Shown: positions 8,305 to 58,802 of the stretch, one piece after another
How positions within the stretch are numbered: the stretch's first letter is position 1
Layout: the number at the start of each line of letters is the position of its first letter
DNA from: Sphingobacteriales bacterium
Lineage (GTDB): Bacteria; Bacteroidota; Bacteroidia; Chitinophagales; Chitinophagaceae
Assembly (NCBI GenBank): GCA_016185185.1
Contig: JACPOD010000026.1
Span: 1,790 to 65,789, forward strand
Reading direction: 5' to 3'
Length of the DNA: 64,000 nt
The notes under the pieces: generated by a model
Told to the model about the DNA's origin: nothing
Databases searched by the model: none
What the model saw: the letters and a program-made list of their open reading frames with translations, nothing else
Translations under genes and position numbers: made by a program

Positions 8305-9402
8305 ATGACTGAGCAAAAAATACTGGAAGCGCTGAGCAATGTACAGGAGCCCGACCTTGGCAAAGACCTTGTTACGCTAAACATGGTAAAGGATATTGTA
8401 ATTGATGGTAACAATGTTTCTTTTACCGTTGTGTTAACAACACCGGCTTGCCCCTTAAAAGATATGATCCGTAATGCCTGTATCAACGCCGTAAAATTGT
8501 TAGTGAAAAAAGAAGCTGATGTTACGGTAAATTTTACTGCTAATACCAGCAGCAACCGTAAAGATGCTGCTACTATTTTGCCTAAAGTAAAAAATATTAT
8601 TGCGGTGGTGAGTGGTAAAGGTGGTGTAGGTAAATCAACTGTAAGTGCAAACCTTGCATTAGCATTAGCGCAGGGTGGCGCAAAAGTTGGTTTGATGGAC
8701 GCTGATATTTACGGACCAAGTGTTCCGATTATGTTTGGCATCCGTGGCCAAAGACCGGTGATGATGGAGATTGAAGGAAAAGGGATGATTGTGCCGATTG
8801 AAAAGTTTGGAATAAAACTGATGAGTATCGGTTCATTGGTTGATGATAAGAACGCAGTAGTATGGCGTGGTCCGATGGCAAGCAGTGCCATCCGCCAGTT
8901 CGTTACGGAAGTATTGTGGGAAGAACTGGATTATTTAATTATTGATATGCCACCGGGTACTGGTGATATTCATTTAACATTAGTGCAAACAGTTCCCGTT
9001 ACAGGGGCAATCATTGTTACTACTCCGCAGGATGTTGCTTTGGCTGATGCAAAGAGAGCAGTTGCTATGTTTGGACAGGCACAAATAAAAGTTCCAATCA
9101 TTGGTTTAGTGGAGAACATGAGTTATTTTATTCCGGCAGAGTTACCCGATAATAAATATTACATCTTTGGTAAAGATGGGGGCAGGCGTTTGGCAGAAGA
9201 ATATGATATTGCCTTCCTGGGGCAAATTCCATTGGTACAAAGCATAAGGGAGGGTGGTGATAGTGGATTGCCCATAATGATGAGTGAAGATAAAATTACC
9301 CGTAAAGCATTTGAAGATTTTGCCGGATTAGCTGCACGGAGTATTGCCATGCGGAATGCACAATACCCATCAACAAAGCCGTTGGAAGTTTTTAGTTCTT
9401 AG
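8305..9402 (+). CDS. apbC: Mrp/NBP35-family Fe-S cluster carrier ATPase
   Basis: N-terminal DUF59-like region followed by the deviant Walker A GKGGVGKST. Its stop codon lies inside the first heptamer units of the array at 9393. Confidence 0.92.
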   Translation: MTEQKILEALSNVQEPDLGKDLVTLNMVKDIVIDGNNVSFTVVLTTPACPLKDMIRNACINAVKLLVKKEADVTVNFTANTSSNRKDAATILPKVKNIIAVVSGKGGVGKSTVSANLALALAQGGAKVGLMDADIYGPSVPIMFGIRGQRPVMMEIEGKGMIVPIEKFGIKLMSIGSLVDDKNAVVWRGPMASSAIRQFVTEVLWEELDYLIIDMPPGTGDIHLTLVQTVPVTGAIIVTTPQDVALADAKRAVAMFGQAQIKVPIIGLVENMSYFIPAELPDNKYYIFGKDGGRRLAEEYDIAFLGQIPLVQSIREGGDSGLPIMMSEDKITRKAFEDFAGLAARSIAMRNAQYPSTKPLEVFSS

Positions 9403-9455
9403 TTTTAAATTCTTAGTTCTTAGTTCTTAGTTCTTAGTTCTGGGTTCTTGGTTCT
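9393..9455 (+). repeat. heptad-phased array, 9 units of TAGTTCT-type words (left arm)
   Basis: Sequence reads tagttct tagtttt aaattct tagttct tagttct tagttct tagttct gggttct tggttct. Confidence 0.9.
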
Positions 9456-9887
9456 GTTTTTTTGTTGCTTATCTGTCTTTAAACTTTGCACCTTTAAATT
9501 CCGCTTGTTTAAATAGTTTATTAAACCTATCAGCATCTTTTGTATTTCTTCTGCAATTGAGTAGAGGCTGTTTAGTTTTTCTTCCGGAATATAATGCCGG
9601 TCAAATATTCTGTACAGCTGTGATTGCGATTCGCAAACAGAACCATGAGCTATTTCAAGAAACTGAATGAATTCTTTATTCCCCCCTCTGCCAAAACCTT
9701 CAGCAATATTGTCCATAACTGAACCACTGGAATTATTAATTTGATCTCTTAATTTAAAATCTGTTTTAAGGCTTGTTTCTGTACAAATAACAAATATTTT
9801 CTTACAAAAAAATCTTGCTTTTTGCCAAACTTCAACGTCTTCAAATTTTTTAAAAGTAGCCAAATGAAAACGTTTAATTATACTCAA
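9420..9887 (-). CDS. four helix bundle protein (23S rRNA intervening-sequence protein family)
   Basis: FEDVEVWQKARFF...NIAEGFGRGGNKEFIQFLEIAHGSVCESQSQL matches the TIGR02436/PF05635 pattern. It has a TTG start, and its C-terminal tail is encoded by the left repeat arm. Confidence 0.8.
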   Translation of the reverse strand: MSIIKRFHLATFKKFEDVEVWQKARFFCKKIFVICTETSLKTDFKLRDQINNSSGSVMDNIAEGFGRGGNKEFIQFLEIAHGSVCESQSQLYRIFDRHYIPEEKLNSLYSIAEEIQKMLIGLINYLNKRNLKVQSLKTDKQQKNRTKNPELRTKN

Positions 9888-9893
9888 ACAATA

Positions 9894-9935
9894 AAACTTA
9901 GAACTTAAAACCCAGAACTAAGAACTAAAAACTCA
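9894..9935 (-). repeat. heptad-phased array, 6 units of AGAACTA-type words (right arm, inverted relative to 9393-9455)
   Basis: Sequence reads aaactta gaactta aaaccca gaactaa gaactaa aaactca, the reverse-complement word set of the left arm. Confidence 0.9.
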
Positions 9936-9941
9936 AAACAT

Positions 9942-15880: not shown

Positions 15881-15925
15881 GCTACAAGCAAAACAACCAC
15901 AAACTACAAACCACAAACCATAAAC
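15881..15925. repeat. heptad-phased array (ACAAACC-type words)
   Basis: Sequence reads gctacaa gcaaaac aaccaca aactaca aaccaca aaccata, abutting the stop of the 15926 gene. Confidence 0.75.
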
Positions 15926-41024: not shown

Positions 41025-41114
41025 GGATAATAAGGAATAAAGAATTAAAAATGAGAAAGTAATAATCACCCTTTCTTATTCCCTATTTCAATTTCTGATT
41101 TCTTATTTCTCATT
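41025..41114. repeat. paired inverted heptamer arrays (GGAATAA/GAAATTA words) with 11-bp spacer
   Basis: Left arm ggataataaggaataaagaattaaaaatgagaaag. Right arm ctttcttattccctatttcaatttctgatttcttatttctcatt. The reverse complement of the right arm closely resembles 1368-1416. Confidence 0.85.
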
Positions 41115-41127
41115 GTACTTTCGCCCC

Positions 41128-41925
41128 ATGTATTCCAAAGGTCAGTTAGCTGCTAAATATTTTTCCTACTATCTTAAAGCTTCTAATGGAAAAGGCCATG
41201 GAACACATTCTCCCTATGTGTACGATTTTATTGAACAGGTACTCAATGATGACCGTGATTTTTACGCCTATAGTGAAATTGAAAACCTGCGCAAAACATT
41301 ATTAAAAGAGGAACGTACGATTGAGGTACAGGATTTTGGTGCCGGCTCAGCACTAATCAATACAAAACAAAGGAAAGTGGCAGATATAGCCCGGTATTCT
41401 TTGAAACCTAAAAAGTATGCACAATTATTATTCCGGATGGTGAATTATTACCAGCCCAAACATATCCTGGAAATAGGAACTTCTTTAGGTATCACTACCT
41501 GTTACCTCGCAAAGCCCGGCAACAATACCAAAGTAACTACAATGGAAGGGGCAGATTCAATTGCTGCAATCGCACAAGAAAATTTTAAAAAACTTGCATT
41601 AAAGAATATAGAATTAGTGCAAGGCAACTTTAATGAAACACTGTCATCTGTCATCCGTCAACTGTCAACTTTGGATTTCATTTTCATTGATGGCAACCAC
41701 CGCAAGGAACCAACCTTACGTTATTTCGAACAGCTGTTACCCTTAACACATAACGACACCATTTTAATATTTGATGATATTCACTGGAGTGAAGAAATGG
41801 AAGCTGCGTGGAAACAAATAAAAAAGCATGAGCAGGTAAGAACAACTATAGATTTATTTTTTATTGGAATTGTGTTGCTGAGAAAAGAGTTTAAGGAGAA
41901 ACAACATTTTACGATAAGATTTTAA
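41128..41925 (+). CDS. class I SAM-dependent O-methyltransferase-like protein
   Basis: ILEIGTSLGITT is motif I. FIFIDGNHRKEPT and IFDDIHWS follow. The start is at ATG 41128. Confidence 0.7.
   Translation: MYSKGQLAAKYFSYYLKASNGKGHGTHSPYVYDFIEQVLNDDRDFYAYSEIENLRKTLLKEERTIEVQDFGAGSALINTKQRKVADIARYSLKPKKYAQLLFRMVNYYQPKHILEIGTSLGITTCYLAKPGNNTKVTTMEGADSIAAIAQENFKKLALKNIELVQGNFNETLSSVIRQLSTLDFIFIDGNHRKEPTLRYFEQLLPLTHNDTILIFDDIHWSEEMEAAWKQIKKHEQVRTTIDLFFIGIVLLRKEFKEKQHFTIRF
41641..41668 (+). repeat. 4 x 7-bp array (CTGTCAT/CTGTCAA) inside the methyltransferase coding sequence
   Basis: Sequence reads ctgtcat ctgtcat ccgtcaa ctgtcaa, translated in-frame as LSSVIRQLS. Confidence 0.8.
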
Positions 41926-41951
41926 ACCCTAAATCCCTAAAGGGACTTTGC

Positions 41952-41959
41952 TACATTTG
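41952..41959 (+). promoter_or_regulatory. -7 box TAcaTTTG upstream of the rRNA methyltransferase gene
   Basis: Perfect TAnnTTTG 22 nt upstream of TTG 41981. This argues against the annotated ORF start at 41948. Confidence 0.45.
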
Positions 41960-41980
41960 TTGTCTAATTATCTTTATCAA

Positions 41981-43366
41981 TTGAATTCAACTTTACCAGA
42001 AAAATTATTAGCATCTCTTGAAGGAATAAAAGGTTTCGATAAAGAAGCGTTTGTTGCCGTGCATGAAAAAGCAGAAGTAATTACTTCAATCAGGTTAAAT
42101 CCTGTTAAACAGTCAATGGTCAATGGTCAATCGTCAATAAAAGATGGCATTCACTATTCACTATTCACTATTCACTCAAAAGTTCCCTGGAGCTCTAACG
42201 GTTACTATCTTCCCGAACGTCCATCTTTTACCTTAGACCAATTATTCCACGCCGGTACTTATTATGTGCAGGAAGCCAGCAGTATGTTTTTGGAGGAAGC
42301 GGTGCGGCAAACTGTTGATGTATCAAAACCAATAAAAGTACTGGACTTATGTGCAGCACCGGGTGGAAAATCAACGTTACTGCAAAGCATTATTTCGGCG
42401 GATAGTTTACTGGTGAGTAATGAAGTGATACAATCAAGAGCATCGGTGTTAAGAGAAAATATAATAAAGTGGGGAGCAGCTAATGTAGTGGTGACGAATA
42501 ATGATCCGAAAGATTTTCAGCAGTTGCAGGGATTTTTTGATGTGATTGTGGTAGATGCGCCCTGTAGTGGCAGTGGTTTATTCAGGCGGGATGAAGAAGC
42601 CATTGCTGAATGGAGTGAGAATAATGTACAGCTGTGCAGTCAGCGGCAGCAACGGATTTTAGCAGATGTATTACCGGCGTTGAAAGAAGAAGGTGTGTTG
42701 ATTTATTCTACCTGCTCTTATTCAAAAGATGAAGACGAAAAAATAATCGATTGGTTAATCAATCACTGTCAACTGTCAACCATCAACTGTCAACTCAAAG
42801 AAGAATGGAATATTGTTGAATCAAATGGCGGCTATCGTTTCTGGCCCGATAAAATTAAAGGTGAAGGGTTTTTTATTGCTTGTTTTAAAAAGAATGAAGG
42901 AGTGGAATTTTCTTATCCAAGGGTGAGAGCCTTTAATAAAGCCACTAAACAGGAAGCAGAAGTATTAAGCTGTTTTTTGGATAAACCACAGCAGTTTGAA
43001 TTTCTTCCGCTCACGGATCATTTATTTGCTGTGCCGGTTGAATTAGTTCAGGATATAATGCTGCTGAAAAGTTTATTACGCATCCGTTATGCAGGCATTG
43101 AAATGGGTGTAATCAATAAAAACGATTTGATACCGGAACATACACTGGCTCTTTCTGTTCATATCAATAAAACATTACCTGCTGTTCAGCTCAATAAAGA
43201 ACAGGCTTTACAATATTTACGCAAGCAGGATAATCTTCAACTGGAATTAAATGGTATGAAAGGATGGTGTTTGATGCAGTATGAAGGGATTAATCTTGGA
43301 TGGGCCAAGCTATTGCCTAACCGTATTAATAATTATTATCCTAAGGAGTGGAGGATATTAAAGTAG
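41981..43366 (+). CDS. RsmB/RsmF-family rRNA cytosine-C5 methyltransferase
   Basis: YYVQEASSM, DLCAAPGGKST, VDAPCSGSG and YSTCS motifs. The start is uncertain (TTG 41981 or TTG 41948). It contains in-frame repeat elements. Confidence 0.82.
   Translation: MNSTLPEKLLASLEGIKGFDKEAFVAVHEKAEVITSIRLNPVKQSMVNGQSSIKDGIHYSLFTIHSKVPWSSNGYYLPERPSFTLDQLFHAGTYYVQEASSMFLEEAVRQTVDVSKPIKVLDLCAAPGGKSTLLQSIISADSLLVSNEVIQSRASVLRENIIKWGAANVVVTNNDPKDFQQLQGFFDVIVVDAPCSGSGLFRRDEEAIAEWSENNVQLCSQRQQRILADVLPALKEEGVLIYSTCSYSKDEDEKIIDWLINHCQLSTINCQLKEEWNIVESNGGYRFWPDKIKGEGFFIACFKKNEGVEFSYPRVRAFNKATKQEAEVLSCFLDKPQQFEFLPLTDHLFAVPVELVQDIMLLKSLLRIRYAGIEMGVINKNDLIPEHTLALSVHINKTLPAVQLNKEQALQYLRKQDNLQLELNGMKGWCLMQYEGINLGWAKLLPNRINNYYPKEWRILK
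42112..42176 (+). repeat. composite element: 4 x GTCAATG + 9-bp spacer + 4 x ATTCACT, in-frame in the methyltransferase gene
   Basis: Sequence reads gtcaatg gtcaatg gtcaatc gtcaata aaagatggc attcact x4. It is homologous to 46088-46159 (reverse complement). Confidence 0.9.
42766..42793 (+). repeat. 4 x 7-bp array (CTGTCAA) in-frame in the methyltransferase gene
   Basis: Sequence reads ctgtcaa ctgtcaa ccatcaa ctgtcaa, translated as CQLSTINCQL. Confidence 0.85.
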
Positions 43367-43748
43367 TTTTTTGTTTCGTAATGGCGAGGTATGAAGCCAT
43401 CTGCTTTGTGAATAACACACTCTTCGCTATTGTTAGCTGTTAATCCACAAATGTGTTGGTGGATGCGTTAGACCAGCATTTTAAAGCGACCGACCTGAGG
43501 CCACAATTTGTTACCTCAAGTTTCATAAACATTATGAGTAGCCATCTTTCATCAATTTCATAGACTCTCTACTTTCTTTTGTTTGGCCAAAAGAAAGTAG
43601 CAAAGAAAAGGCCCCCGAATTCGATATACAGCACGAATTCGGTTGAATGACTTTTGAGCTTTGGTACTACTGTGGTGAAGAACTGCTGTTCCTTGATTTT
43701 AGATTTCTTCTTTACAATTGTTGATAGCAGATCAACAACGGGAGAAGT

Positions 43749-44102
43749 TTATTTCTTCCATTCTTCTATTTTGAAATCTTTTACTACTGAATCGCTGTTT
43801 AACTGAAAGGAAAGATATTTGGTGTAAATTGGATCAATGTCAGTTCCATAATCTTCATCAATTAAATATAGCATAATACTATCTGTTGGATAATCAGGCT
43901 CACCTAGAAGATTTACTAAATCATTTTTAGATACTCCAATTAATTTATAGTTGGTTATTAGATCTTTGAACATTTTCTTTCTATTTTGTGGAGGAGCTTC
44001 TGGATATTCTTTTGTTTTCCATTTTGTACTTTCAAACTTTATTTGGTTCTGACAAGAAAGAAGTGCTGTAAATAGAAGTAAAAGCAACAAAGGTTTTATC
44101 AT
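43749..44102 (-). CDS. small exported protein/lipoprotein, unknown function
   Basis: Signal peptide MIKPLLLLLLFTALLSC. The gene is AT-rich. Confidence 0.4.
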   Translation of the reverse strand: MIKPLLLLLLFTALLSCQNQIKFESTKWKTKEYPEAPPQNRKKMFKDLITNYKLIGVSKNDLVNLLGEPDYPTDSIMLYLIDEDYGTDIDPIYTKYLSFQLNSDSVVKDFKIEEWKK

Positions 44103-44211
44103 AATATTCTATTGAAGGAATAACTCATAATACTTTTTCAATAATCAGATATTGTAATAACATCCTTCTCCTCCCAATCCATTCAATCCAATAAATCGTG
44201 GTTCAGACAAA

Positions 44212-44847
44212 TTACTTCCTCCCAAAATCAGCAGGATTTTCGCCCCAGGCACTGGTTTCCCATTTTAAAATTTTATTGGGATAAGTATTTTGCTGCAACC
44301 ATTGTTCGGCCCGTTCAATTAATTCAAATATCATTTCATTCCTGCCGGTTCTTTCTAATTTGGTTTTTGCTTTCTTTCCCTTCACCCATAAAATAGCATT
44401 GCGGCTATCGCTGTAAATGGGCAGCAAAAGATTTTTGTTTTTGCAATAACCGAGTGCATGTACAATAGCGAGGAACTCGCCAATATTATTGGTGCCATCA
44501 GTAAACGGCCCTTGTTTGAAAATAAGTTTATTTGTTTTGTAAAAAATCCCCTGGTACTCCATCGGTCCTGGCATACCACTGCAGGCAGCATCTACAATAA
44601 TACTATCGTGAATGGGGTTACCAACATTTTTTAACTCCTTTTTACCAACTGAGGCATCAACGATAAGATCTTCATTGTAACCCGCCGTTCCTTTGTGGAA
44701 TGCCGTGGTGGCTGCATCTTTTGTCTTGAAAGAGCGGTAAAGAGCACCGGTAAAACCATGAATTTGTTTTTTGCAGTCGTCCCAATTGTCGTAAATACCG
44801 GGCTGTTTACCTTTCCAAACCACGTAATATTTTTGTTCTTTGGCCAT
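44212..44847 (-). CDS. rnhA: ribonuclease HI with N-terminal hybrid-binding (caulimovirus viroplasmin-like) domain
   Basis: YYVVWKGKQPGIYDNWDDCKKQIHGFTGALYRSF is the HBD motif. The RNase H core follows (DAAC, NNIGEFLA, IYSDS). The start is at ATG 44847. Confidence 0.85.
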   Translation of the reverse strand: MAKEQKYYVVWKGKQPGIYDNWDDCKKQIHGFTGALYRSFKTKDAATTAFHKGTAGYNEDLIVDASVGKKELKNVGNPIHDSIIVDAACSGMPGPMEYQGIFYKTNKLIFKQGPFTDGTNNIGEFLAIVHALGYCKNKNLLLPIYSDSRNAILWVKGKKAKTKLERTGRNEMIFELIERAEQWLQQNTYPNKILKWETSAWGENPADFGRK

Positions 44848-44888
44848 TATTGGCACAAGTTTAGCAAAAACAAAATTATTCTGCATCT

Positions 44889-45686
44889 TTGCTCACGATT
44901 AAATTTAATATTCATGAAGTTGATTCTTGGTTTATTGGTTTCCTTATTTATATCGTTCAGGAAAAAGAAGGGTTGATGAAAGTGGGCAAATATTTTGGCA
45001 TTAGTGCAGAGGATTTGAAGAAATTAAATGGATTGAAAGCTGATGCAGTAAATATGGGTGATAAACTGGTGATTGGTTATTTGAAAGTGCTGAAGGAACA
45101 ATCTCCATTAGCAGCTAATGCAAAAGCGGGTAAGCCGGTGGTGAAGACGCAAGGGGCAAATGACAAGGCACAAGAAGTTGCTAAAACGGAAGTAAAGAAA
45201 GAAGATAAACCAATAGTTAAACAACCAGAAGTTAAGCCCGAAGAAAAACCAGTGGTAAAAGCTCCTGAAGTGAAGAAAGAAGAGAAGCCTGTTGTAAAAC
45301 AGGAAATACCAAAAGTAGAAGAAAAGAAACCTGTGGTGAGTAGTACAGTAAACAGCTCTGCATCGAAAGAAGGGGTGTTTATGAATGAATATTTTTCACA
45401 AACGAATAATGGAAGTAATACCCAATCATCTGAAACGATGTGCGGCGTATTTAAAAGCAGCAGCGGCTGGAACAATGGAAAATATTATGCCCTGATGAAT
45501 GGCGTAGAAAGAGGAACCATTGTAAAGATTATGGTGAATGGCCGGGCCGTTTATGCAAAAGTTTTAGATGCTGTACCCAATGTAAAGGAGAATGCAGGGT
45601 TGAATGTACTCATCAGTAATGCAGCTGCGGCACAGTTAGCCGTAAGTGAGCAGAAGTTTAATGTGGGAGTGATGTGGAGTAAGTAA
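44889..45686 (+). CDS. LysM domain + Lys/Pro/Glu-rich linker + RlpA-like double-psi beta-barrel protein
   Basis: LysM-like YIVQEKEGLMKVGKYFGISAEDLKKLNGL, followed by KPVVK/EEK repeats. The C-terminus GTIVKIMVNGRAVYAKVLD is RlpA-like. The 5' end is unclear (see finding). Confidence 0.55.
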   Translation: MLTIKFNIHEVDSWFIGFLIYIVQEKEGLMKVGKYFGISAEDLKKLNGLKADAVNMGDKLVIGYLKVLKEQSPLAANAKAGKPVVKTQGANDKAQEVAKTEVKKEDKPIVKQPEVKPEEKPVVKAPEVKKEEKPVVKQEIPKVEEKKPVVSSTVNSSASKEGVFMNEYFSQTNNGSNTQSSETMCGVFKSSSGWNNGKYYALMNGVERGTIVKIMVNGRAVYAKVLDAVPNVKENAGLNVLISNAAAAQLAVSEQKFNVGVMWSK

Positions 45687-45719
45687 ATGAAAAATGAAAA
45701 GTGAATAATGAGAAATGGG
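45685..45719. repeat. heptad-phased array (AATGAAA/AGTGAAT words)
   Basis: Sequence reads aaatgaa aaatgaa aagtgaa taatgag aaatggg, starting within the stop codon of the LysM gene. Confidence 0.75.
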
Positions 45720-45745
45720 ATGCAGTAGTTGTATCCCATTTTTAT
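45714..45745 (+). terminator. rho-independent terminator after the LysM/RlpA-like gene
   Basis: Stem aatgggat / atcccatt with an 11-nt loop, followed by ttttatt. Confidence 0.6.
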
Positions 45746-46659
45746 TGAAAACGATAGCCTCTTAAAAAATCTTCTACATTCATTTTCTTTTTTCCTTCCA
45801 GCTGAAGTTCGATTACATGTACATAACCATCGGCACAGGCGAATTTTAGAAATGTTTTGTTATCGGTTTCAAATTCACCGGTATTGCTTTTAGATGATGT
45901 GATTTCTTTTTTACTCCGGTATATCTTCAGCATCTTTCCCTGCCCGACTTCGTCATTCAGGCGGGCATCTAAATAAGTAAACGCTCCGGGAAAAGGAGAG
46001 AGGCCTCGGATGAGGTTATGTACTTCAGTTGTTGTTTTGGTAAAATCTATTTTGCAGGTGTCGGTGAAAATTTTGGGGGCATGTTTGAGTGAATGGTGAA
46101 TAGTGAATGGTGAATTGCCATCTTCTTTTTCCATTGACCATTGACCATTGACCATTGACAACTGGGGAACTTCATTAAGAGACCTATCCGCTAACCCTTC
46201 CACTGTTTTTACTAACAACGCTGCTCCAATTTCTTTCATTTTATCATGCACTTCACCGGCGGTTTCATTTTCATCTATGTTGATAGGAGCGGCGCCACGG
46301 TATTGTGGTAATAAACTACCATGTAAGTTAACTGTTCCCATTGGCGGCATATTCCAAACAACTTCGGGTAACATGCGGAAGGCAACCACAATTTGTAAAT
46401 CGGCATTGAGTGCTTTTAGTTGTTCCAGGAATTCAGCATTCTTTAATTTTTCCGGTTGCAGGATGTTTAAGTTATGTTCAACAGCATATTTCTTTACAGC
46501 ACTTTCATTGAGCTTCATTCCACGTCCGGCAGGTTTATCGGGTGCAGTGATTACACCCACAATATTACATCCAGCTTTTACCAATGCATCCAGAGAAGCT
46601 ACGGCAAAATCCGGTGTGCCCATAAAAACAATTCGCAGCGATTGAAAATCTTTCATCAT
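45742..46659 (-). CDS. fmt: methionyl-tRNA formyltransferase, atypical (internal gap plus repeat insertion)
   Basis: RIVFMGTPDFAV and NLHGSLLPQYRGAAPI motifs, with C-terminal domain LSPFPGAF...LQLEGKKKM. The segment expected after RGAAPI seems missing, and element 46088-46159 is inserted. Confidence 0.8.
   Translation of the reverse strand: MMKDFQSLRIVFMGTPDFAVASLDALVKAGCNIVGVITAPDKPAGRGMKLNESAVKKYAVEHNLNILQPEKLKNAEFLEQLKALNADLQIVVAFRMLPEVVWNMPPMGTVNLHGSLLPQYRGAAPINIDENETAGEVHDKMKEIGAALLVKTVEGLADRSLNEVPQLSMVNGQWSMEKEDGNSPFTIHHSLKHAPKIFTDTCKIDFTKTTTEVHNLIRGLSPFPGAFTYLDARLNDEVGQGKMLKIYRSKKEITSSKSNTGEFETDNKTFLKFACADGYVHVIELQLEGKKKMNVEDFLRGYRFQ
46088..46159 (-). repeat. composite element: 4 x GTCAATG + 16-nt spacer + 4 x ATTCAC(C/T) (as read on the minus strand), in-frame in fmt
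   Basis: The plus strand reads agtgaat ggtgaat agtgaat ggtgaat tgccatcttcttttt c cattgac x4. Confidence 0.9.
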
Positions 46660-46704
46660 CGCTGCGAAGGTAAGAGAAGCAATTATACTTCTCAATAGTT
46701 CGCA

Positions 46705-49551: not shown

Positions 49552-50808
49552 ATGTTTATACAGGTAAATGAAAACCAGCTGGCCGAACGTTTTATGCGGT
49601 ATGTAAAAGTGGATACACAAAGTGATCCGCTGAGTAATACGTATCCCACTACCGAAAAGCAAAAGGATCTTTCCCGCATCCTCGTGCAGGAATTACAGGG
49701 CATGGGTATAAGCGATGCACACCTGGATGAACATGGCTATGTGTATGCTACGATACCATCCAACAGCAGTAAAAAAAATATTCCGGTTATCTGTTATTGT
49801 GCCCATGTGGATACAGCGCCTGACTGCAGTGGCACGGATGTTAAACCCATCCTACATAAAAATTATGATGGTGCAGCTATTGTGTTGCCCGATGATAATT
49901 TACAGGTATTAACATTGGAAGCTTATCCTTATTTGAAAAATCATATAGGAGCTGATATCATTACTGCCAGTGGAAAAACATTACTCGGCAGTGATGATAA
50001 AGCCGGTGTGGCAGAGATCATGGAGTTTGCCTATTATGTAATGACGCATCCTGAAATTAATCATGGTGAAATAAAATTATTGTTTACACCGGATGAAGAA
50101 GTGGGCAAAGGGACAGCGAATGTGGATCTGAAAAAGTTAGGAGCACAATATGGTTATACATTGGATGGTGGTGAAGCCGGTGATCTGGAAGACGAAACCT
50201 TTAGTGCAGATGCAGCACATATTATTGTAAATGGTGTTATCTCACATCCCGGTTATGCCAAAGGGAAGATGGTGAATGCTTTGAAAATCGCCGGTGAAAT
50301 TTTAGCAGCGTTACCGAAGAATGAATTTAGTCCGGAGACTACGGAAAAACGGGAAGGTTTTGTGCACCCAACAAGAGTGGATGGTATAGCAGAAAAAGCA
50401 ACCATTGAATTTATAGTTCGTGATTTTGATACAGCGAGGTTAGCCCAACATCAAGCAAGACTAAAATCCATTGCAGAAAAAGTATTGAGTAATTATCCCA
50501 ACTGCAATATGGAGTTCCATGTACAGGAACAATACCGCAACATGAAAGAAATACTGGATCAAAACCCTCATGTAGTAACTAATGCTGAAGAAGCTATTAA
50601 ACGGGCAGGTTTATCGGTAAGAAAAGAAGCCATCCGTGGCGGTACCGATGGCAGCCGCTTAAGTTTTATGGGGTTGCCTTGCCCCAATCTTTTTGCAGGT
50701 GAACAAGCGATTCACTCCAAATTAGAATGGATAGGTGTAAAGGACATGGTTAAAGCTGTGGAAACACTTTTGCATCTTTCAATGATTTGGGAAGAGAAGA
50801 GTGAATAG
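49552..50808 (+). CDS. pepT: peptidase T (tripeptide aminopeptidase, M20B)
   Basis: RFMRYVKVDTQSD, CAHVDTAPD, LGSDDKAG and FTPDEEVG motifs. Its stop codon lies inside the repeat arm. Confidence 0.92.
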   Translation: MFIQVNENQLAERFMRYVKVDTQSDPLSNTYPTTEKQKDLSRILVQELQGMGISDAHLDEHGYVYATIPSNSSKKNIPVICYCAHVDTAPDCSGTDVKPILHKNYDGAAIVLPDDNLQVLTLEAYPYLKNHIGADIITASGKTLLGSDDKAGVAEIMEFAYYVMTHPEINHGEIKLLFTPDEEVGKGTANVDLKKLGAQYGYTLDGGEAGDLEDETFSADAAHIIVNGVISHPGYAKGKMVNALKIAGEILAALPKNEFSPETTEKREGFVHPTRVDGIAEKATIEFIVRDFDTARLAQHQARLKSIAEKVLSNYPNCNMEFHVQEQYRNMKEILDQNPHVVTNAEEAIKRAGLSVRKEAIRGGTDGSRLSFMGLPCPNLFAGEQAIHSKLEWIGVKDMVKAVETLLHLSMIWEEKSE

Positions 50809-50873
50809 TGAAAAATGAAAAATGAATAATCGGGTCTTTATATTTTTCACTTTGCTCTTTTCATTTTTCATTT
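50800..50873. repeat. paired inverted heptamer arrays (AGTGAAT/AATGAAA words) between convergent genes
   Basis: Left arm agtgaat agtgaaa aatgaaa aatgaat aat. Right arm atttttcactttgctcttttcatttttcattt. The stop codons of both flanking genes fall in or at the arms. Confidence 0.85.
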
Positions 50874-53253: not shown

Positions 53254-53292
53254 GCAATGAAGTCAAAAGTAAAAATTCAAAATAAAGAATCC

Positions 53293-53524
53293 CACAGGGA
53301 TTCCTTACCAATTCAACATTCAAAATTCATCATTCAGCATTCAAAATAATCCACCCCGCAGGGGATTCCTCATTCATTCAAAATTCATCATTCAGCATTC
53401 AAAATAATCCACCCCGCAGGGGATTCCTCATTCATTCAAAATTCATCATTCAGCATTCAAAATAATCCACCCCGCAGGGGATTCCTCATTCATTCAAAAT
53501 TTATAATTCAAAATTTAAAATAAT
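53293..53524 (+). repeat. tandem array, 4 units of 58 bp (two central units identical)
   Basis: The unit is ccaccccgcaggggattcctcattcattcaaaattcatcattcagcattcaaaataat, with copies at 53351 and 53409 (identical) and diverged copies at 53293 and 53467. Each unit is a GC mini-hairpin plus ATTCANN heptamers. Confidence 0.92.
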
Positions 53525-54369: not shown

Positions 54370-54441
54370 TGAGTCGTGAATCGTGAGGCGTGAGTGGCAG
54401 GAGGCAAATAATTTATAATTTAAAATTCAGCATTTAAAATT
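54370..54441 (+). repeat. composite element in the exbB-exbD spacer: 4 x TGANNCG + spacer + 5 x TAAAATT-type heptamers
   Basis: Sequence reads tgagtcg tgaatcg tgaggcg tgagtgg (54370-54397), then aataatt tataatt taaaatt cagcatt taaaatt (54407-54441). Confidence 0.85.
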
Positions 54442-54445
54442 TCCA

Positions 54446-57738: not shown

Positions 57739-58674
57739 TTATACAACTGCTTTCACCATCCGGTCTTTTCCCTGCATATCTTTCTTTACTTCTATACTGG
57801 TAAATCCTTTTGCTGTAAATAAAGCTATCATATCATTACCCAATGCTTCATTAATTTCCAAAAACATCATTCCAACCGGTTTTAAATGCGTTAAGGCAAA
57901 ATCAGCTATCTGTTTATAAAAGATCAATGCATCATCATCGGGTACAAAAAGTGCTAAGGATGGTTCAAAGTCTAAAACGCCTTTACGCATGGCTGCGGCT
58001 TCACTTCTTTTTACATAAGGTGGGTTACTTACAATAATATCAAACTGGCCTAATTCATTCCATTTAGTTCTGTCTAAAAAGTCAAGCAACTTGAAATCTA
58101 TCTCTGTTTCATTACTCATGGCATTTTGAACGGCTATACTTAATGCTTCACTGCAAACATCAATAGCCGTTACTTTAGCAGCAGGTAACTTCTTTTTCAA
58201 CGCAATGGGTATGCAGCCGCTGCCTGTTCCAATGTCAATTATTTTGAATTTTGAATTTTGAATGTTGAATAAATCGTTGGTAGTCGGCTGTTGTTCATTG
58301 GCCGGAGGATTATCAGGTTTTAATTTTTCATTTTTCATTTTCCACTTTTCACTTTCAATTATCCACTCCACCAGCTCTTCTGTTTCCGGTCTTGGTATCA
58401 GTACTTTTTCATTTACATAAAATTTCATTCCGGCAAACCAGGCTTCACCCAATACATATTGTACAGGCCGGTGGGCTAATAATTCTTTTGTGTATTTTTC
58501 TAACTGCCCCTGCTTTTGTGGAGATAAAGGAAATTCTTTGTTTACGATGCGGTCAATTCGTTTCCATTCTGTAATATGCTCCATCACCCAGTCGGCAATA
58601 TTATGCGCCTCTCTGTCATCATAAATCTCAAACAGCTGAAACAATAACTGCTGGTATGCCCGGTGAATGGTCAT
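57739..58674 (-). CDS. prmC: peptide chain release factor N5-glutamine methyltransferase, with in-frame repeat insertion
   Basis: LIPRPETEELVEW, DIGTGSGCIPIAL and SNPPY motifs. At 311 aa it is about 30 aa longer than I recall for PrmC, and the extra residues map to 58241-58358. Confidence 0.88.
   Translation of the reverse strand: MTIHRAYQQLLFQLFEIYDDREAHNIADWVMEHITEWKRIDRIVNKEFPLSPQKQGQLEKYTKELLAHRPVQYVLGEAWFAGMKFYVNEKVLIPRPETEELVEWIIESEKWKMKNEKLKPDNPPANEQQPTTNDLFNIQNSKFKIIDIGTGSGCIPIALKKKLPAAKVTAIDVCSEALSIAVQNAMSNETEIDFKLLDFLDRTKWNELGQFDIIVSNPPYVKRSEAAAMRKGVLDFEPSLALFVPDDDALIFYKQIADFALTHLKPVGMMFLEINEALGNDMIALFTAKGFTSIEVKKDMQGKDRMVKAVV
58241..58358 (-). repeat. composite element in-frame in prmC: 5 x GAAAA(G/A)T-type + 55-bp spacer + 4 x ATTCAAA (as read on the coding strand)
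   Basis: The plus strand reads attttga attttga attttga atgttga (58241-58268), then tttttca tttttca ttttcca cttttca ctttcaa (58324-58358). Confidence 0.85.
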
Positions 58675-58686
58675 GGGGCAAAAATA

Positions 58687-58802
58687 CTGGTTTCTGGTTG
58701 GGGTTGGTTACTGGTTCCTTGTTCTTATAACCAGCAACCAGTAACTTGTAACCAGCAACCAGTAACTTGTAACCAGCAACCAGTAACTTGTAACCAGCAA
58801 CC
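58687..58802. repeat. heptamer arrays in inverted orientation; right arm is a 21-bp tandem repeat (3.5 copies)
   Basis: Left arm ctggttt ctggttg gggttgg ttactgg ttccttg ttcttat. Right arm (aaccagc aaccagt aacttgt) x3 + aaccagcaacc, at 58729-58802. Confidence 0.9.

Follow-up and report, generated by a model that had tools for sequence, protein, structure and literature searches.

Why do two unrelated genes of one bacterium carry the same composite repeat, read in frame in both? The question is posed by a 64,000-nucleotide stretch of the genome of a soil Bacteroidota (Sphingobacteriales) bacterium (the window), in which element 1 (42112-42176, plus strand) and element 2 (46088-46159, minus strand) are copies of a single composite in which a short loop joins (GTCAATG)n to (ATTCACY)n. 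Element 1 consists of a left arm (42112-42139; units GTCAATG, GTCAATG, GTCAATC, and GTCAATA, read as (Q)SMVNGQSSI in an RsmF-like gene), a 9-nt loop (42140-42148; AAAGATGGC, read as KDG), and a right arm (42149-42176; ATTCACT x4, read as IHYSLFTIH). On the minus strand, element 2 has a left arm at 46132-46159 (GTCAATG x4, read as SMVNGQWSM in fmt), a 16-nt loop at 46116-46131 (GAAAAAGAAGATGGCA, read as EKEDGN), and a right arm at 46088-46115 (ATTCACC, ATTCACT, ATTCACC, and ATTCACT, read as SPFTIHHS). The arms of both are 28 nt (4 x 7). We confirmed that both copies are in frame inside long ORFs and that their peptides match those given in the original prediction. The four GTCAATG units claimed for each left arm are all perfect in element 2 (4/4) but not in element 1 (2/4). 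Likewise, one reading frame is shared along the left arms and the loop core AAGATGGC but not along the right arms, which are offset by one base (GGC ATT CAC versus GGC AAT TCA), so that each right-arm peptide is a cyclic permutation of the other and the two are not identical. The core, AAGATGGC(A), is common to elements 1 and 2 and is absent from the orthologous loops of other genomes, which would fit an exchange between copies of one genome.

Both elements fold as imperfect hairpins. The arms of element 1 pair with one mismatch per 7 bp, and its RNA has a minimum free energy of -13.5 kcal/mol (z -2.8); the whole of element 2 reaches -18.7 kcal/mol (z -3.3) and its antisense strand -22.4 kcal/mol (z -4.3). 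Tandem Repeats Finder detects all four arrays. At ≤2 mismatches, GTCAATGGTCAATG has 6 matches (0.76 expected) and ATTCACTATTCACT has 9 (0.80 expected), counts that no shuffle reached. Hence, chance is excluded for both elements. No direct repeats flank either copy in the two element sequences that we inspected.

The two host sites differ. Element 1 lies in a gene for an RsmF-type rRNA cytosine-C5 methyltransferase (41981-43366, plus strand; ORF 41948-43366; Pfam RsmF_N, RsmB-F, and PUA), whose intact ORF gives a 461-aa product identical to P0001 of a Sphingobacteriales MAG. It had been expected to occupy an inter-domain linker; instead, the site falls inside the N-terminal domain (Pfam RsmF_N, residues 16-110), in a lineage-variable segment where the element stands in place of ~17 residues of 3M4X, the closest solved homolog. 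The same expectation was borne out for element 2, which maps to the linker between residues about 200 and 202 of E. coli Fmt. Its host (45742-46623, minus strand; ORF 45742-46695; P0121, 293 aa; Formyl_trans_N and Formyl_trans_C) is annotated as methionyl-tRNA formyltransferase. In this gene, 33 conserved N-terminal-domain residues are missing, among them the catalytic Asp region (deletion junction 46279/46278), so the label "housekeeping" may not fit this allele. In fmt, prmC, and hemC alike, heptamer elements sit at domain boundaries. The element segment has no predicted secondary structure (pLDDT below 50), and both AlphaFold models have low confidence around the elements, so that a placement in surface loops is weakly supported.

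One scan of species-representative genomes for the exact composite pattern matched 85 loci, mostly in Chitinophagaceae; the window holds 2 copies of the composite. The two copies are not private insertions: the same element occurs at the same sites in distant orthologs and in at least 12 other gene families. Thirty loci are clearly coding (ORFs ≥150 aa) and 45 non-coding, with another 10 ambiguous; the scan demanded two C-type units per arm, so this catalogue is biased to ORF-compatible copies and its coding fraction is not a genome-wide estimate. Coding hosts span at least 12 gene families without a functional theme: HemC (10 genomes, one common site), Ile/LeuRS (4), ValRS, ArgRS, RsmF, RibF, TilS, Lhr, a glutamine amidotransferase, dihydroorotate dehydrogenase (pyrD), sulfite reductase, and FecR. 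AT-rich GTSAATG hairpins (S, C or G) also turned up in genomes with 56-70% GC from other phyla, which, judged from record names and GC content, are apparently Acidobacteriota, Gemmatimonadota, and Alphaproteobacteria. An Rfam search matched no family, and there is no rRNA within the window. The family has the architecture (GTSAATR)n, a loop of about 3-30 nt, and (YATTSAC)n, and is defined at the nucleotide level, not as a protein motif, with both intergenic and intragenic copies.

We noted three features of the coding copies. First, their antisense strand has stops in all three frames, with stop-free frames in 0/30 copies; the common orientation is therefore forced. Second, in the codon phase that reads TSA (variable base at codon position 2), the variable base is C in 31/31 left-arm and 38/38 right-arm units, whereas in the other two phases G occurs in 20/73 and 9/77 units, near the non-coding frequencies of 34% and 15%. 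Third, a 7-nt unit does not divide into whole codons, so every frame of a heptamer array translates to the same cyclic peptide (SMVNGQW or IHHSPFT). The common orientation and frame pointed out in the original prediction are no evidence for a common mode of insertion. To survive in a gene, a copy would need the sense orientation, a C-type unit at each TSA codon phase (where G gives TGA), and a site able to bear about 20 added, probably disordered, residues. Such a filter would account for the common orientation, the related peptides, and the C·C mismatch of coding hairpins. The regular C·C mismatch is what remains after exclusion of TGA-creating units, and stop avoidance fully explains the mismatch pattern.

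The host sites (the fmt linker, the variable N-terminal segment of RsmF, the prmC linker, hemC, and others) are old common hot spots with turnover, because some close relatives hold other heptamer arrays there. In the fmt linker, the place of the GTCAATG/ATTCACY arrays of the window is taken by ACAGACC/GTCTRTN in L174 (also a hairpin), (CAACCAG)4 in L173, and (ATTCAGC)4 in L088; perfect (GTCAATG)4 is found at this linker in the more distant Lacibacter sediminis and Flavisolibacter. The rsmF gene of the window carries a second in-frame heptamer array (42765-42795, plus strand; (ACTGTCA)x4.4, read as CQLSTINCQL), and in L088 this ACTGTCA family occupies the element 1 site itself, as (TGTCAAC)x4 instead of the GTCAATG arm. 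A further ACTGTCA-type array lies in frame at 41640-41670 (plus strand) in the neighboring SAM-dependent methyltransferase ORF (41113-41925). In prmC, an in-frame composite between the PrmC_N and methyltransferase domains (58241-58355, minus strand; (RTGAAAA)n, 47 nt, (TTCAAAA)n) belongs to a heptamer family unlike that of elements 1 and 2, and lineages differ in the 7-residue-periodic peptides of this linker. The prmC composite has no hairpin fold (z 0.0) and the L173 array in the fmt linker forms none, so palindromy is not universal among in-frame heptamer arrays.

Taken as a whole, these observations make it probable that elements 1 and 2 belong to one dispersed family of short DNA palindromes, whose in-gene copies are filtered by stops and occupy hot-spot sites with turnover. 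Arrays at host sites would be kept homogeneous or swapped for other heptamer families instead of decaying, perhaps via re-insertion or gene conversion between genomic copies, aided by slippage within arrays. We infer an essentially selfish or neutral element, and its distribution suggests that it is mobile; no transposition event, target-site duplication, or clean empty site was seen at the loci examined, and no associated transposase among the part of the window ORFs that was scanned.

The constraint on the element acts on its nucleotides rather than on its peptide. Where RsmF orthologs of 58-90% identity share an amino acid, they also share its codon in 180/209 comparisons (86%) inside the element, versus 2016/3928 (51%) in the rest of rsmF. 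The original prediction would have failed had distant orthologs encoded the peptide in non-repetitive DNA; they do carry the peptide, but through the same repetitive heptamers. Such conservation across family-level divergence could equally mean that an RNA or DNA hairpin function is selected. The hairpins might then be functional mRNA cis-elements held at these sites: entry points for RNase III or another nuclease that set mRNA half-life, inter-domain ribosome pauses that aid co-translational folding, or binding-site arrays for a heptamer-recognizing protein. A fmt-site hairpin that persists with different units in the window, L174, L175, and L022, the domain-boundary location in fmt, prmC, and hemC, an arm length equal to the 28-bp RNase III stem of the Coxiella intervening sequence (PMC4990558), and the binding of heptamer units by cold-shock proteins (PMC4679880) would all fit. 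We nevertheless regard this alternative as unlikely. Many close relatives (P0004, P0005, P0007, P0008, P0124, and L173) have lost the element or one arm and retained the gene, and coding copies form, if anything, the weaker hairpins (-0.327 kcal/mol per nt, against -0.369 in non-coding copies; p = 0.12). Moreover, stop avoidance alone accounts for the mismatches, the host genes lack a functional theme, and Rfam offers no match. This alternative overlaps with the dispersed palindromic family that we favor, since a selfish origin can precede domestication.

Heptamer arrays are not confined to the two elements. The window contains 13 period-7 arrays; every other period between 4 and 12 yields 0-1, and shuffles yield none. 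Elsewhere in the window are an intergenic hairpin that directly follows an M20 peptidase ORF (50796-50873; inverted arrays GTGAATA/GTGAAAA/ATGAAAA and TTTTTCA/TTTTCAT) and intergenic inverted arrays at 58680-58802 ((CTGGTTN)n, then (TAACCAG/CAACCAG)n). The CAACCAG family of the latter is also the array family in the fmt linker of L173. Across the fetched loci, we counted 258 arrays with 64 different canonical units, and adjacent pairs ≤1.5 kb apart were inverted complements in 70/126 cases and direct in 10/126. An excess so specific to period 7, the diversity of units, and the concerted switching of whole arrays among close relatives could be read as local polymerase slippage that favors 7-nt units in this lineage, with no dispersed element and with convergence behind the similarity between genes; both heptamer over-representation and an explanation of it by polymerase slippage have been published (PMC4692102). 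However, slippage is unable to make the same pair of 7-mers, the inverted arrangement, and a common loop core in unrelated genes, or to place AT-rich GTSAATG hairpins in GC-rich genomes of other phyla, and three closely related units make up 162/258 arrays, although the loci had been selected for that family. We therefore hold slippage alone to be highly improbable. A further reading, in which selection maintains SMVNGQW...IHHSPFTIH as a protein module common to these enzymes (for instance, a tag for interaction or localization), is close to refuted, even though the peptide is recognizable in many RsmF, Fmt, HemC, and IleRS orthologs: its synonymous sites are conserved and not free, 45/85 copies are non-coding, its residues vary (Q/E, H/D, and F/L) exactly where the C/G position of the unit permits, and the segment is predicted to be unstructured.

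Heptamer arrays also enclose a gene in the window. At 9387-9939 (minus strand), an S23p gene (ORF 9420-9887) lies between the inverted arrays (AGTTCTT)n (9387-9455) and (AAGAACT)n (9893-9939). S23p, the 23S-rRNA-intervening-sequence protein, is a four-helix bundle, and the cassette has the arm architecture of the elements with a gene in the loop. All five S23p genes inspected in Chitinophagaceae loci (5/5) are placed between inverted heptamer arrays, as are 39/72 metagenomic relatives of the window S23p. One of the five, that of L080, has GTSAATN/CATTCAC arms; it was the only S23p cassette of this kind found across about 640 kb of loci that bear the GTSAATG family. The Coxiella 23S rRNA intervening sequence, called a selfish element, contains an S23p ORF and strain-variable tandem heptamers, and RNase III cuts its 28-bp terminal stem (PMC4990558). 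Hence the heptamer arrays around S23p genes point to a link with bacterial intervening sequences, and the short hairpins may be gene-less counterparts of S23p-bearing, intervening-sequence-like cassettes with similar arms. Intervening sequences (S23p, PF05635; Coxiella and Leptospira) share with our elements terminal inverted repeats (a ~28 bp stem, 28-nt arms here), strain-variable tandem heptamers in the stem region, and a sporadic distribution at conserved host sites, and are likewise regarded as selfish (PMC4990558). They differ in sitting in rRNA helices 25 and 45 rather than in protein-coding ORFs, and in having an S23p ORF in the loop, where elements 1 and 2 have 9 and 16 nt and no ORF. 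Intervening sequences are also excised from RNA by RNase III, whereas elements 1 and 2 must be translated for an intact host ORF; such excision would destroy the host mRNA. A bolder proposal, which we consider doubtful, is that heptamer-array hairpins are the non-autonomous, gene-less form of S23p (Avd-like four-helix-bundle) cassettes, one cross-phylum mobile class homing to existing hairpins or arrays (rRNA helices, intergenic hairpins, and protein linkers). If true, this class would account for the long-noted bacterial heptamer-repeat excess, for sporadic intervening sequences at fixed rRNA sites, and for heptamer-family swaps at fixed sites in housekeeping proteins.

The palindromic elements of Rickettsia (Ogata et al. 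2000; summarized in a MITE review, PMC10969869) are among the nearest known parallels; they are about 100-150 bp, of complex sequence, and found in Rickettsia only. The original prediction drew this parallel, and it is upheld: here too, one palindromic repeat family is read through in frame in unrelated housekeeping genes. Both are short dispersed palindromes, a large share of which lies in frame in such genes and contributes a conserved peptide where the protein structure tolerates it; for neither is a transposase known. The long-hairpin palindrome (-13.5 and -18.7 kcal/mol; z -2.8 and -3.3) and the dispersed, largely in-frame, peptide-encoding copies (30 clearly coding among the 85 loci) are present here as well. 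However, our elements are about 60-75 bp, their arms consist of tandem heptamers in which one position wobbles between C and G, their hosts are Bacteroidota and apparently other phyla, and their sites are re-used by different heptamer families. Because the arms and host phyla differ, we liken the family to Rickettsia elements by behavior, expect no relationship in sequence, and do not file it as a member.

Heptamer repeats are known as short tandemly repeated repetitive sequences of cyanobacteria, GGGAATC in Xanthomonas, GGGGAYT in Nostoc, and TAACTGA in Beggiatoaceae, cyanobacteria, and five Bacteroidetes (PMC4692102, PMC4679880). They share with our arrays a heptamer-specific tandem excess (in the 64-kb window, ≥3 tandem 7-nt units with an excess specific to period 7), some inverted pairs, differences in length and sequence among close relatives, patchiness across phyla, and an ORF orientation set by stop codons (PMC4692102, PMC4679880). 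Unlike our elements, they are reported chiefly from intergenic DNA, as single arrays for which a regulatory or G-quadruplex role has been proposed (PMC4692102, PMC4679880); the heptamer-repeat literature that we examined describes no specific two-arm composite that recurs in frame across many housekeeping genes with conservation at orthologous sites. MITEs and REPINs are also small, non-autonomous-looking palindromic repeats in many copies, and ERIC, BOX, and Correia elements are occasionally fused in frame within genes (PMC10969869, PMC2229807). At the two elements, we found no target-site duplications or IS-derived terminal repeats, and among the window ORFs scanned no cognate transposase or REP-associated tyrosine transposase. 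Their units do not carry the GTAG or CGTC heads of REP/REPIN sequences, and their arms are internally repetitive where those of MITEs and REPINs are unique sequence. In Nostoc, very small mobile repeats, 21-27-nt unique sequences inserted into heptamer arrays, many nested in tandem heptamers or hairpins and sometimes intragenic, were reportedly described by Elhai and colleagues in 2008; here, the heptamer arrays themselves are the repeated unit.

Limited literature searching returned no account of such in-frame palindromic elements in Bacteroidota, and a 2024 review only speculated on Rickettsia-type in-frame palindromic insertion outside Rickettsia (PMC10969869). A structurally simpler family does likewise in free-living soil and water Bacteroidota, and apparently in other phyla too; it touches aminoacyl-tRNA synthetases, heme and pyrimidine biosynthesis, and translation factors. 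Because these arrays make gene length differ among close relatives, and a slip of a single unit moves the reading frame, they can confuse the alignment of orthologs, the assembly of MAGs, and the calling of pseudogenes. The family offers a natural record of where essential enzymes accept insertions of about 20 residues, and a clean example of the genetic code filtering which repeat variants can live in genes. It also provides a concrete, testable link among three phenomena that have lacked an explanation, namely the excess of heptamer repeats, the multi-copy genes for S23p four-helix bundles, and the intervening sequences of rRNA.

Direct reading of the sequence confirmed two related, in-frame composites in unrelated genes, each made of a left heptamer array, a short loop, and a right heptamer array. 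Element 1 (42112-42176, plus strand) lies in an RsmF-like methyltransferase gene (rsmF; Pfam domains RsmF_N, RsmB-F, and PUA) and reads GTCAATG GTCAATG GTCAATC GTCAATA, loop AAAGATGGC, and four ATTCACT units. Element 2 (46159-46088, minus strand), 3.9 kb away, lies in fmt (Formyl_trans_N and Formyl_trans_C) and reads four GTCAATG units, loop GAAAAAGAAGATGGCA, and ATTCACC ATTCACT ATTCACC ATTCACT. Both are inside long ORFs. The original prediction had the right arm of element 1 correct but gave its left arm four perfect GTCAATG units, of which there are only two; it also placed both copies in the same reading frame, which does not hold for the right arms, whose registers differ by one base. The arrays gave 6 and 9 matches where 0.8 were expected by chance, and no shuffle attained either count. 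Both elements form long hairpins with 1 mismatch per 7 bp (MFE -13.5 kcal/mol, z -2.8, for element 1; -18.7, z -3.3, for element 2). Their loops have AAGATGGC(A) in common, and this core is absent from the orthologous loops of other genomes, which suggests recent exchange between the two window copies. The CAAA past the last unit of both copies was discarded as flanking similarity, being a host-encoded Lys codon.

The two insertions are neither private nor recent: distant orthologs carry them at the same sites, and a single scan of species-representative genomes with the pattern GTCAATGGTCAATG N{0,30} ATTCACYATTCAC returned 85 loci. An assembly artefact can be rejected outright, since the composite is present in >80 independent assemblies; isolate genomes with it include Lacibacter sediminis CP060007, Niabella ginsengisoli, and Flaviaesturariibacter amylovorans. 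The window itself comes from a Sphingobacteriales MAG related to Chitinophagaceae. Most of the loci are from Chitinophagaceae or Sphingobacteriales, nine belong to MAGs of Pyrinomonadaceae or other Acidobacteriota, and others come from Mesorhizobium, Gemmatimonadales, and Nitrospira records. Loci of these non-Bacteroidota phyla have 56-70% GC, which rules out Bacteroidota contamination as their source. Among contigs in this GC range (fetched loci L001, L007, L030, L039, L042, L044, L058, L062, L072, L009, L046, L043, and L050, placed in Pyrinomonadaceae, Mesorhizobium, Nitrospira, and Gemmatimonadales) there are AT-rich GTSAATG hairpins (S = C or G) as well as other inverted heptamer arrays, namely GTGACAG/CTGTCAC, AGCTAAC/GTTAGCT, and GGCGACA/TGTCGCC. 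Their presence there points to horizontal spread or to a sequence-specific mechanism that acts across phyla. Rfam returned nothing relevant for the whole window at gathering thresholds or for 41900-46400 at E up to 5.

Thirty of the 85 copies clearly belong to ORFs of 150 aa or longer, 45 are non-coding, and 10 are ambiguous. Coding copies recur in HemC (ten genomes, all at the same site) and in Ile/LeuRS (four genomes, two elements per gene); further hosts include ValRS, ArgRS, a glutamine amidotransferase, dihydroorotate dehydrogenase, TilS, Lhr, sulfite reductase, FecR, RibF, and RsmF. The two in-frame GTSAATG-family elements in the Ile/Leu-tRNA synthetase genes of several Chitinophagaceae are ~500 bp apart (L020 6337-6939; L027 883-1451; L066 5693-6260). 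One of them is directly upstream of the conserved DEDVLDTWFSS motif, the same relative position as that of the ValRS element (L052).

A common orientation and frame had been read as a sign of element behaviour; both are forced by stop codons and heptamer arithmetic. Because 7 is not a multiple of 3, three units (21 nt) cover all three phases and encode the same cyclic peptide whatever the phase: (GTCAATG)3 invariably yields SMVNGQW in some cyclic order, and (ATTCACC)3 does so with IHHSPFT. The reverse strands hold CAT TGA and GAA TAG, which leaves a single orientation that can stay open, and the antisense frame was open in 0/30 coding copies. Pairing between GGTCAAT and ATTCACY extends over 6/7 positions with a single C·C mismatch; a fully complementary partner would be ATTGACC or GTGAATG, either of which makes one TGA in every 21 nt. 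Where the variable C/G base is the second of its codon (TSA), it was C in 31/31 left-arm and 38/38 right-arm units of coding copies. The other two phases had G in 20/73 left-arm and 9/77 right-arm units, close to the 34% and 15%, respectively, of non-coding copies. In these non-coding copies, GTGAATG and GTCAATG units occur together, as do ATTGACC and ATTCACC units, and perfect hairpins are found among them. Amino acid variation among orthologs (Q/E, H/D, and F/L, plus GTC/GTG for Val) corresponds exactly to the C/G wobble. Stop avoidance explains the coding variant of the repeat. Hairpin stability differed between coding and non-coding copies in the expected direction, but not significantly (p = 0.12).

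RsmF orthologs at only 58-62% identity (among them Puia, Lacibacter, and MAGs) have the peptide at the same position, whereas in some at 83-88% identity the element is missing or reduced to a remnant. In the distant orthologs, the DNA at the site is built from identical heptamer units and not from non-repetitive sequence. Where the amino acid was identical among RsmF orthologs, the codon was also identical in 180/209 comparisons (86%) inside the element versus 2016/3928 (51%) in the rest of the gene; these pairwise comparisons are not independent, and the effect was present in every pair. This difference places the conservation in the nucleotide sequence, not in the peptide. In the rsmF gene of a relative at 88% identity (L088), the site of element 1 is taken up by (TGTCAAC)x4, with the right arm missing, and the same heptamer family is in frame at 42765-42795 and 41640-41670 of the window. 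Heptamer slippage was considered for a frameshift in the rsmF of L068, a further fetched locus, and rejected: the position is an A/T run, and the frameshift is probably a sequencing error.

An element-like linker segment, of differing composition, is present in nearly all Fmt orthologs from Chitinophagaceae. The window carries (GTCAATG)4 ... (ATTCACY)4, a hairpin; the fmt of L174 (89% identity) has (ACAGACC)3 ... GTCTRTN, also a hairpin (z -2.2), and that of L088 has (CATAACN)2-3 ... (ATTCAGC)4, a weak one (z -1.9). More distant genomes hold a perfect (GTCAATG)4 in a hairpin, both in the isolate Lacibacter sediminis (z -1.9) and in Flavisolibacter. In L173 (90% identity), the fmt linker is a single array, (CAACCAG)4, with no hairpin, of the family found in the intergenic array at 58724-58802 of the window. 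The window prmC (57739-58674) has a different in-frame heptamer composite, RTGAAAA/TTCAAAA (arrays 58241-58355), in the linker that joins the PrmC N-terminal and methyltransferase domains. At this site, other lineages carry peptides with a 7-residue period, of the GAAGTCN/NGACTTC type or of others, and these lineage-specific peptides at one site account for the length range of PrmC orthologs, 285 to 353 aa. Simple descent with decay cannot give the pattern observed at the rsmF, fmt, and prmC sites; the arrays have been replaced or re-homogenised.

Both inserts had been expected in inter-domain linkers. This holds for Fmt, where the element is inserted at the inter-domain linker, between about residues 200 and 202 of the E. 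coli protein; in RsmF, it stands in place of ~17 residues of 3M4X, the closest solved homolog, within the N-terminal domain. The AlphaFold models (mean pLDDT 73.5 for RsmF, <50 for residues 31-95; mean 59.7 for Fmt, <50 for element residues 152-187) give both elements pLDDT <50 and no secondary structure. The surrounding regions are poor too, and neither model is good enough there to prove that the insert is a surface loop. From its N-terminal domain, the window fmt is missing 33 nearly invariant residues, equivalent to E. coli positions of about 125-151 (junction 46279/46278); in E. coli Fmt, this stretch includes the catalytic Asp146. The window copy could be a pseudogene or otherwise defective, a strain variant, or an error in the MAG consensus. 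At 45940-45966, it further carries an insertion of 9 residues that is private to it, ARLNDEVGQ, whose DNA (GCCCG...CGGGC) is a small palindrome.

The window holds 13 period-7 arrays, compared with 0-1 for any other period between 4 and 12 and none after shuffling. Among neighbouring array pairs in all fetched loci, 70/126 are inverted complements, mostly with loops of 3-30 nt, and only 10 are direct. Long-range inverted pairs failed as cassette detectors, being mainly neighbouring independent hairpins of the same family, such as the two IleRS elements. Several arrays are at gene boundaries (45685-45717, 41072-41114, 15892-15925, and 54370-54442), between convergent gene ends or immediately 5' of start codons. 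An intergenic 58-bp unit is repeated x3.6 at 96% identity (53317-53524), each unit combining ATTCAAA-type heptamers with a GC-rich hairpin (GGAATCCCCTGCGGGGTGGATT, minus strand), of which an extra copy is directly upstream of the array (about 53288-53305). The 39-nt unit repeated x2.9 (45189-45301) in a LysM-domain ORF (44889-45686) encodes a 13-residue Lys/Glu/Pro/Val-rich repeat (KPEEKPVVKAPEV-like), an ordinary low-complexity linker with no relation to the heptamer arrays.

The sole PF05635 gene of the window (23S rRNA intervening-sequence protein, S23p, an Avd-like four-helix bundle) is between (AGTTCTT)n and (AAGAACT)n, in a cassette at 9387-9939. In 5/5 local cases inspected, the S23p gene is in the loop of a long inverted-heptamer-array hairpin, and the four cassettes besides that of the window (L080 3355-3888, L088 3650-4215, L090 8095-8530, and L092 4965-5520) each have their own heptamer. 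The L080 arms, GTSAATN/CATTCAC, belong to the family of elements 1 and 2; this is the one GTSAATN-armed cassette in about 640 kb of loci. S23p cassettes show presence/absence between syntenic relatives: the window has no counterpart of the L088 cassette in its orthologous intergenic spacer. Metagenomic relatives (L093-L172) were found by a single-protein search with the window S23p, as four proteins were too divergent for a conserved stretch. Inverted repeats well above shuffled controls flank 39/72 of those with enough flank, and their arms are heptamer arrays, mostly NGTTYNN, which is typical of this S23p clade. Coxiella has a 23S intervening sequence that is described as selfish; it contains an S23p ORF, tandem GACAGAT heptamers that vary between strains, and a terminal stem of 28 bp that RNase III cleaves (Warrier et al. 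2016; PMC4990558). From this parallel and the position of S23p genes between heptamer arrays, the gene-less hairpins may relate to S23p cassettes as MITEs do to IS elements. Apart from the Coxiella paper, a limited literature search gave nothing specific on S23p genes with heptamer arrays (PMC4990558).

By composition, the elements belong to the heptamer simple-sequence repeats, whose excess in many bacteria is already known (PMC4692102; also PMC4679880) and on which a 2015 paper noted no detailed literature (PMC4692102). Their closest analogue in architecture is the S23p-type intervening sequence, and in behaviour it is the Rickettsia palindromic element; the proposed likeness to the latter held up for in-frame palindromic behaviour. 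In a 2024 review, the Rickettsia element remains the prime example of in-frame palindromic DNA (PMC10969869), and a limited literature search gave no specific report of such elements in Bacteroidota, in line with the original prediction. Elements 1 and 2 are not an rRNA intervening sequence, being outside rRNA and without an ORF, and no target-site duplication or cognate transposase that would mark a MITE was found. We therefore call them a previously undescribed variation on the in-frame palindromic-element kind. Quite probably, they are palindromic heptamer elements that exist at the nucleotide level, are screened by stop codons, and undergo turnover at old, tolerant sites; a regulatory function for the hairpin as RNA is less likely. 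On the more probable reading, stop codons filter which heptamer hairpin copies survive inside genes, and arrays at such sites are replaced or re-homogenised rather than decaying.
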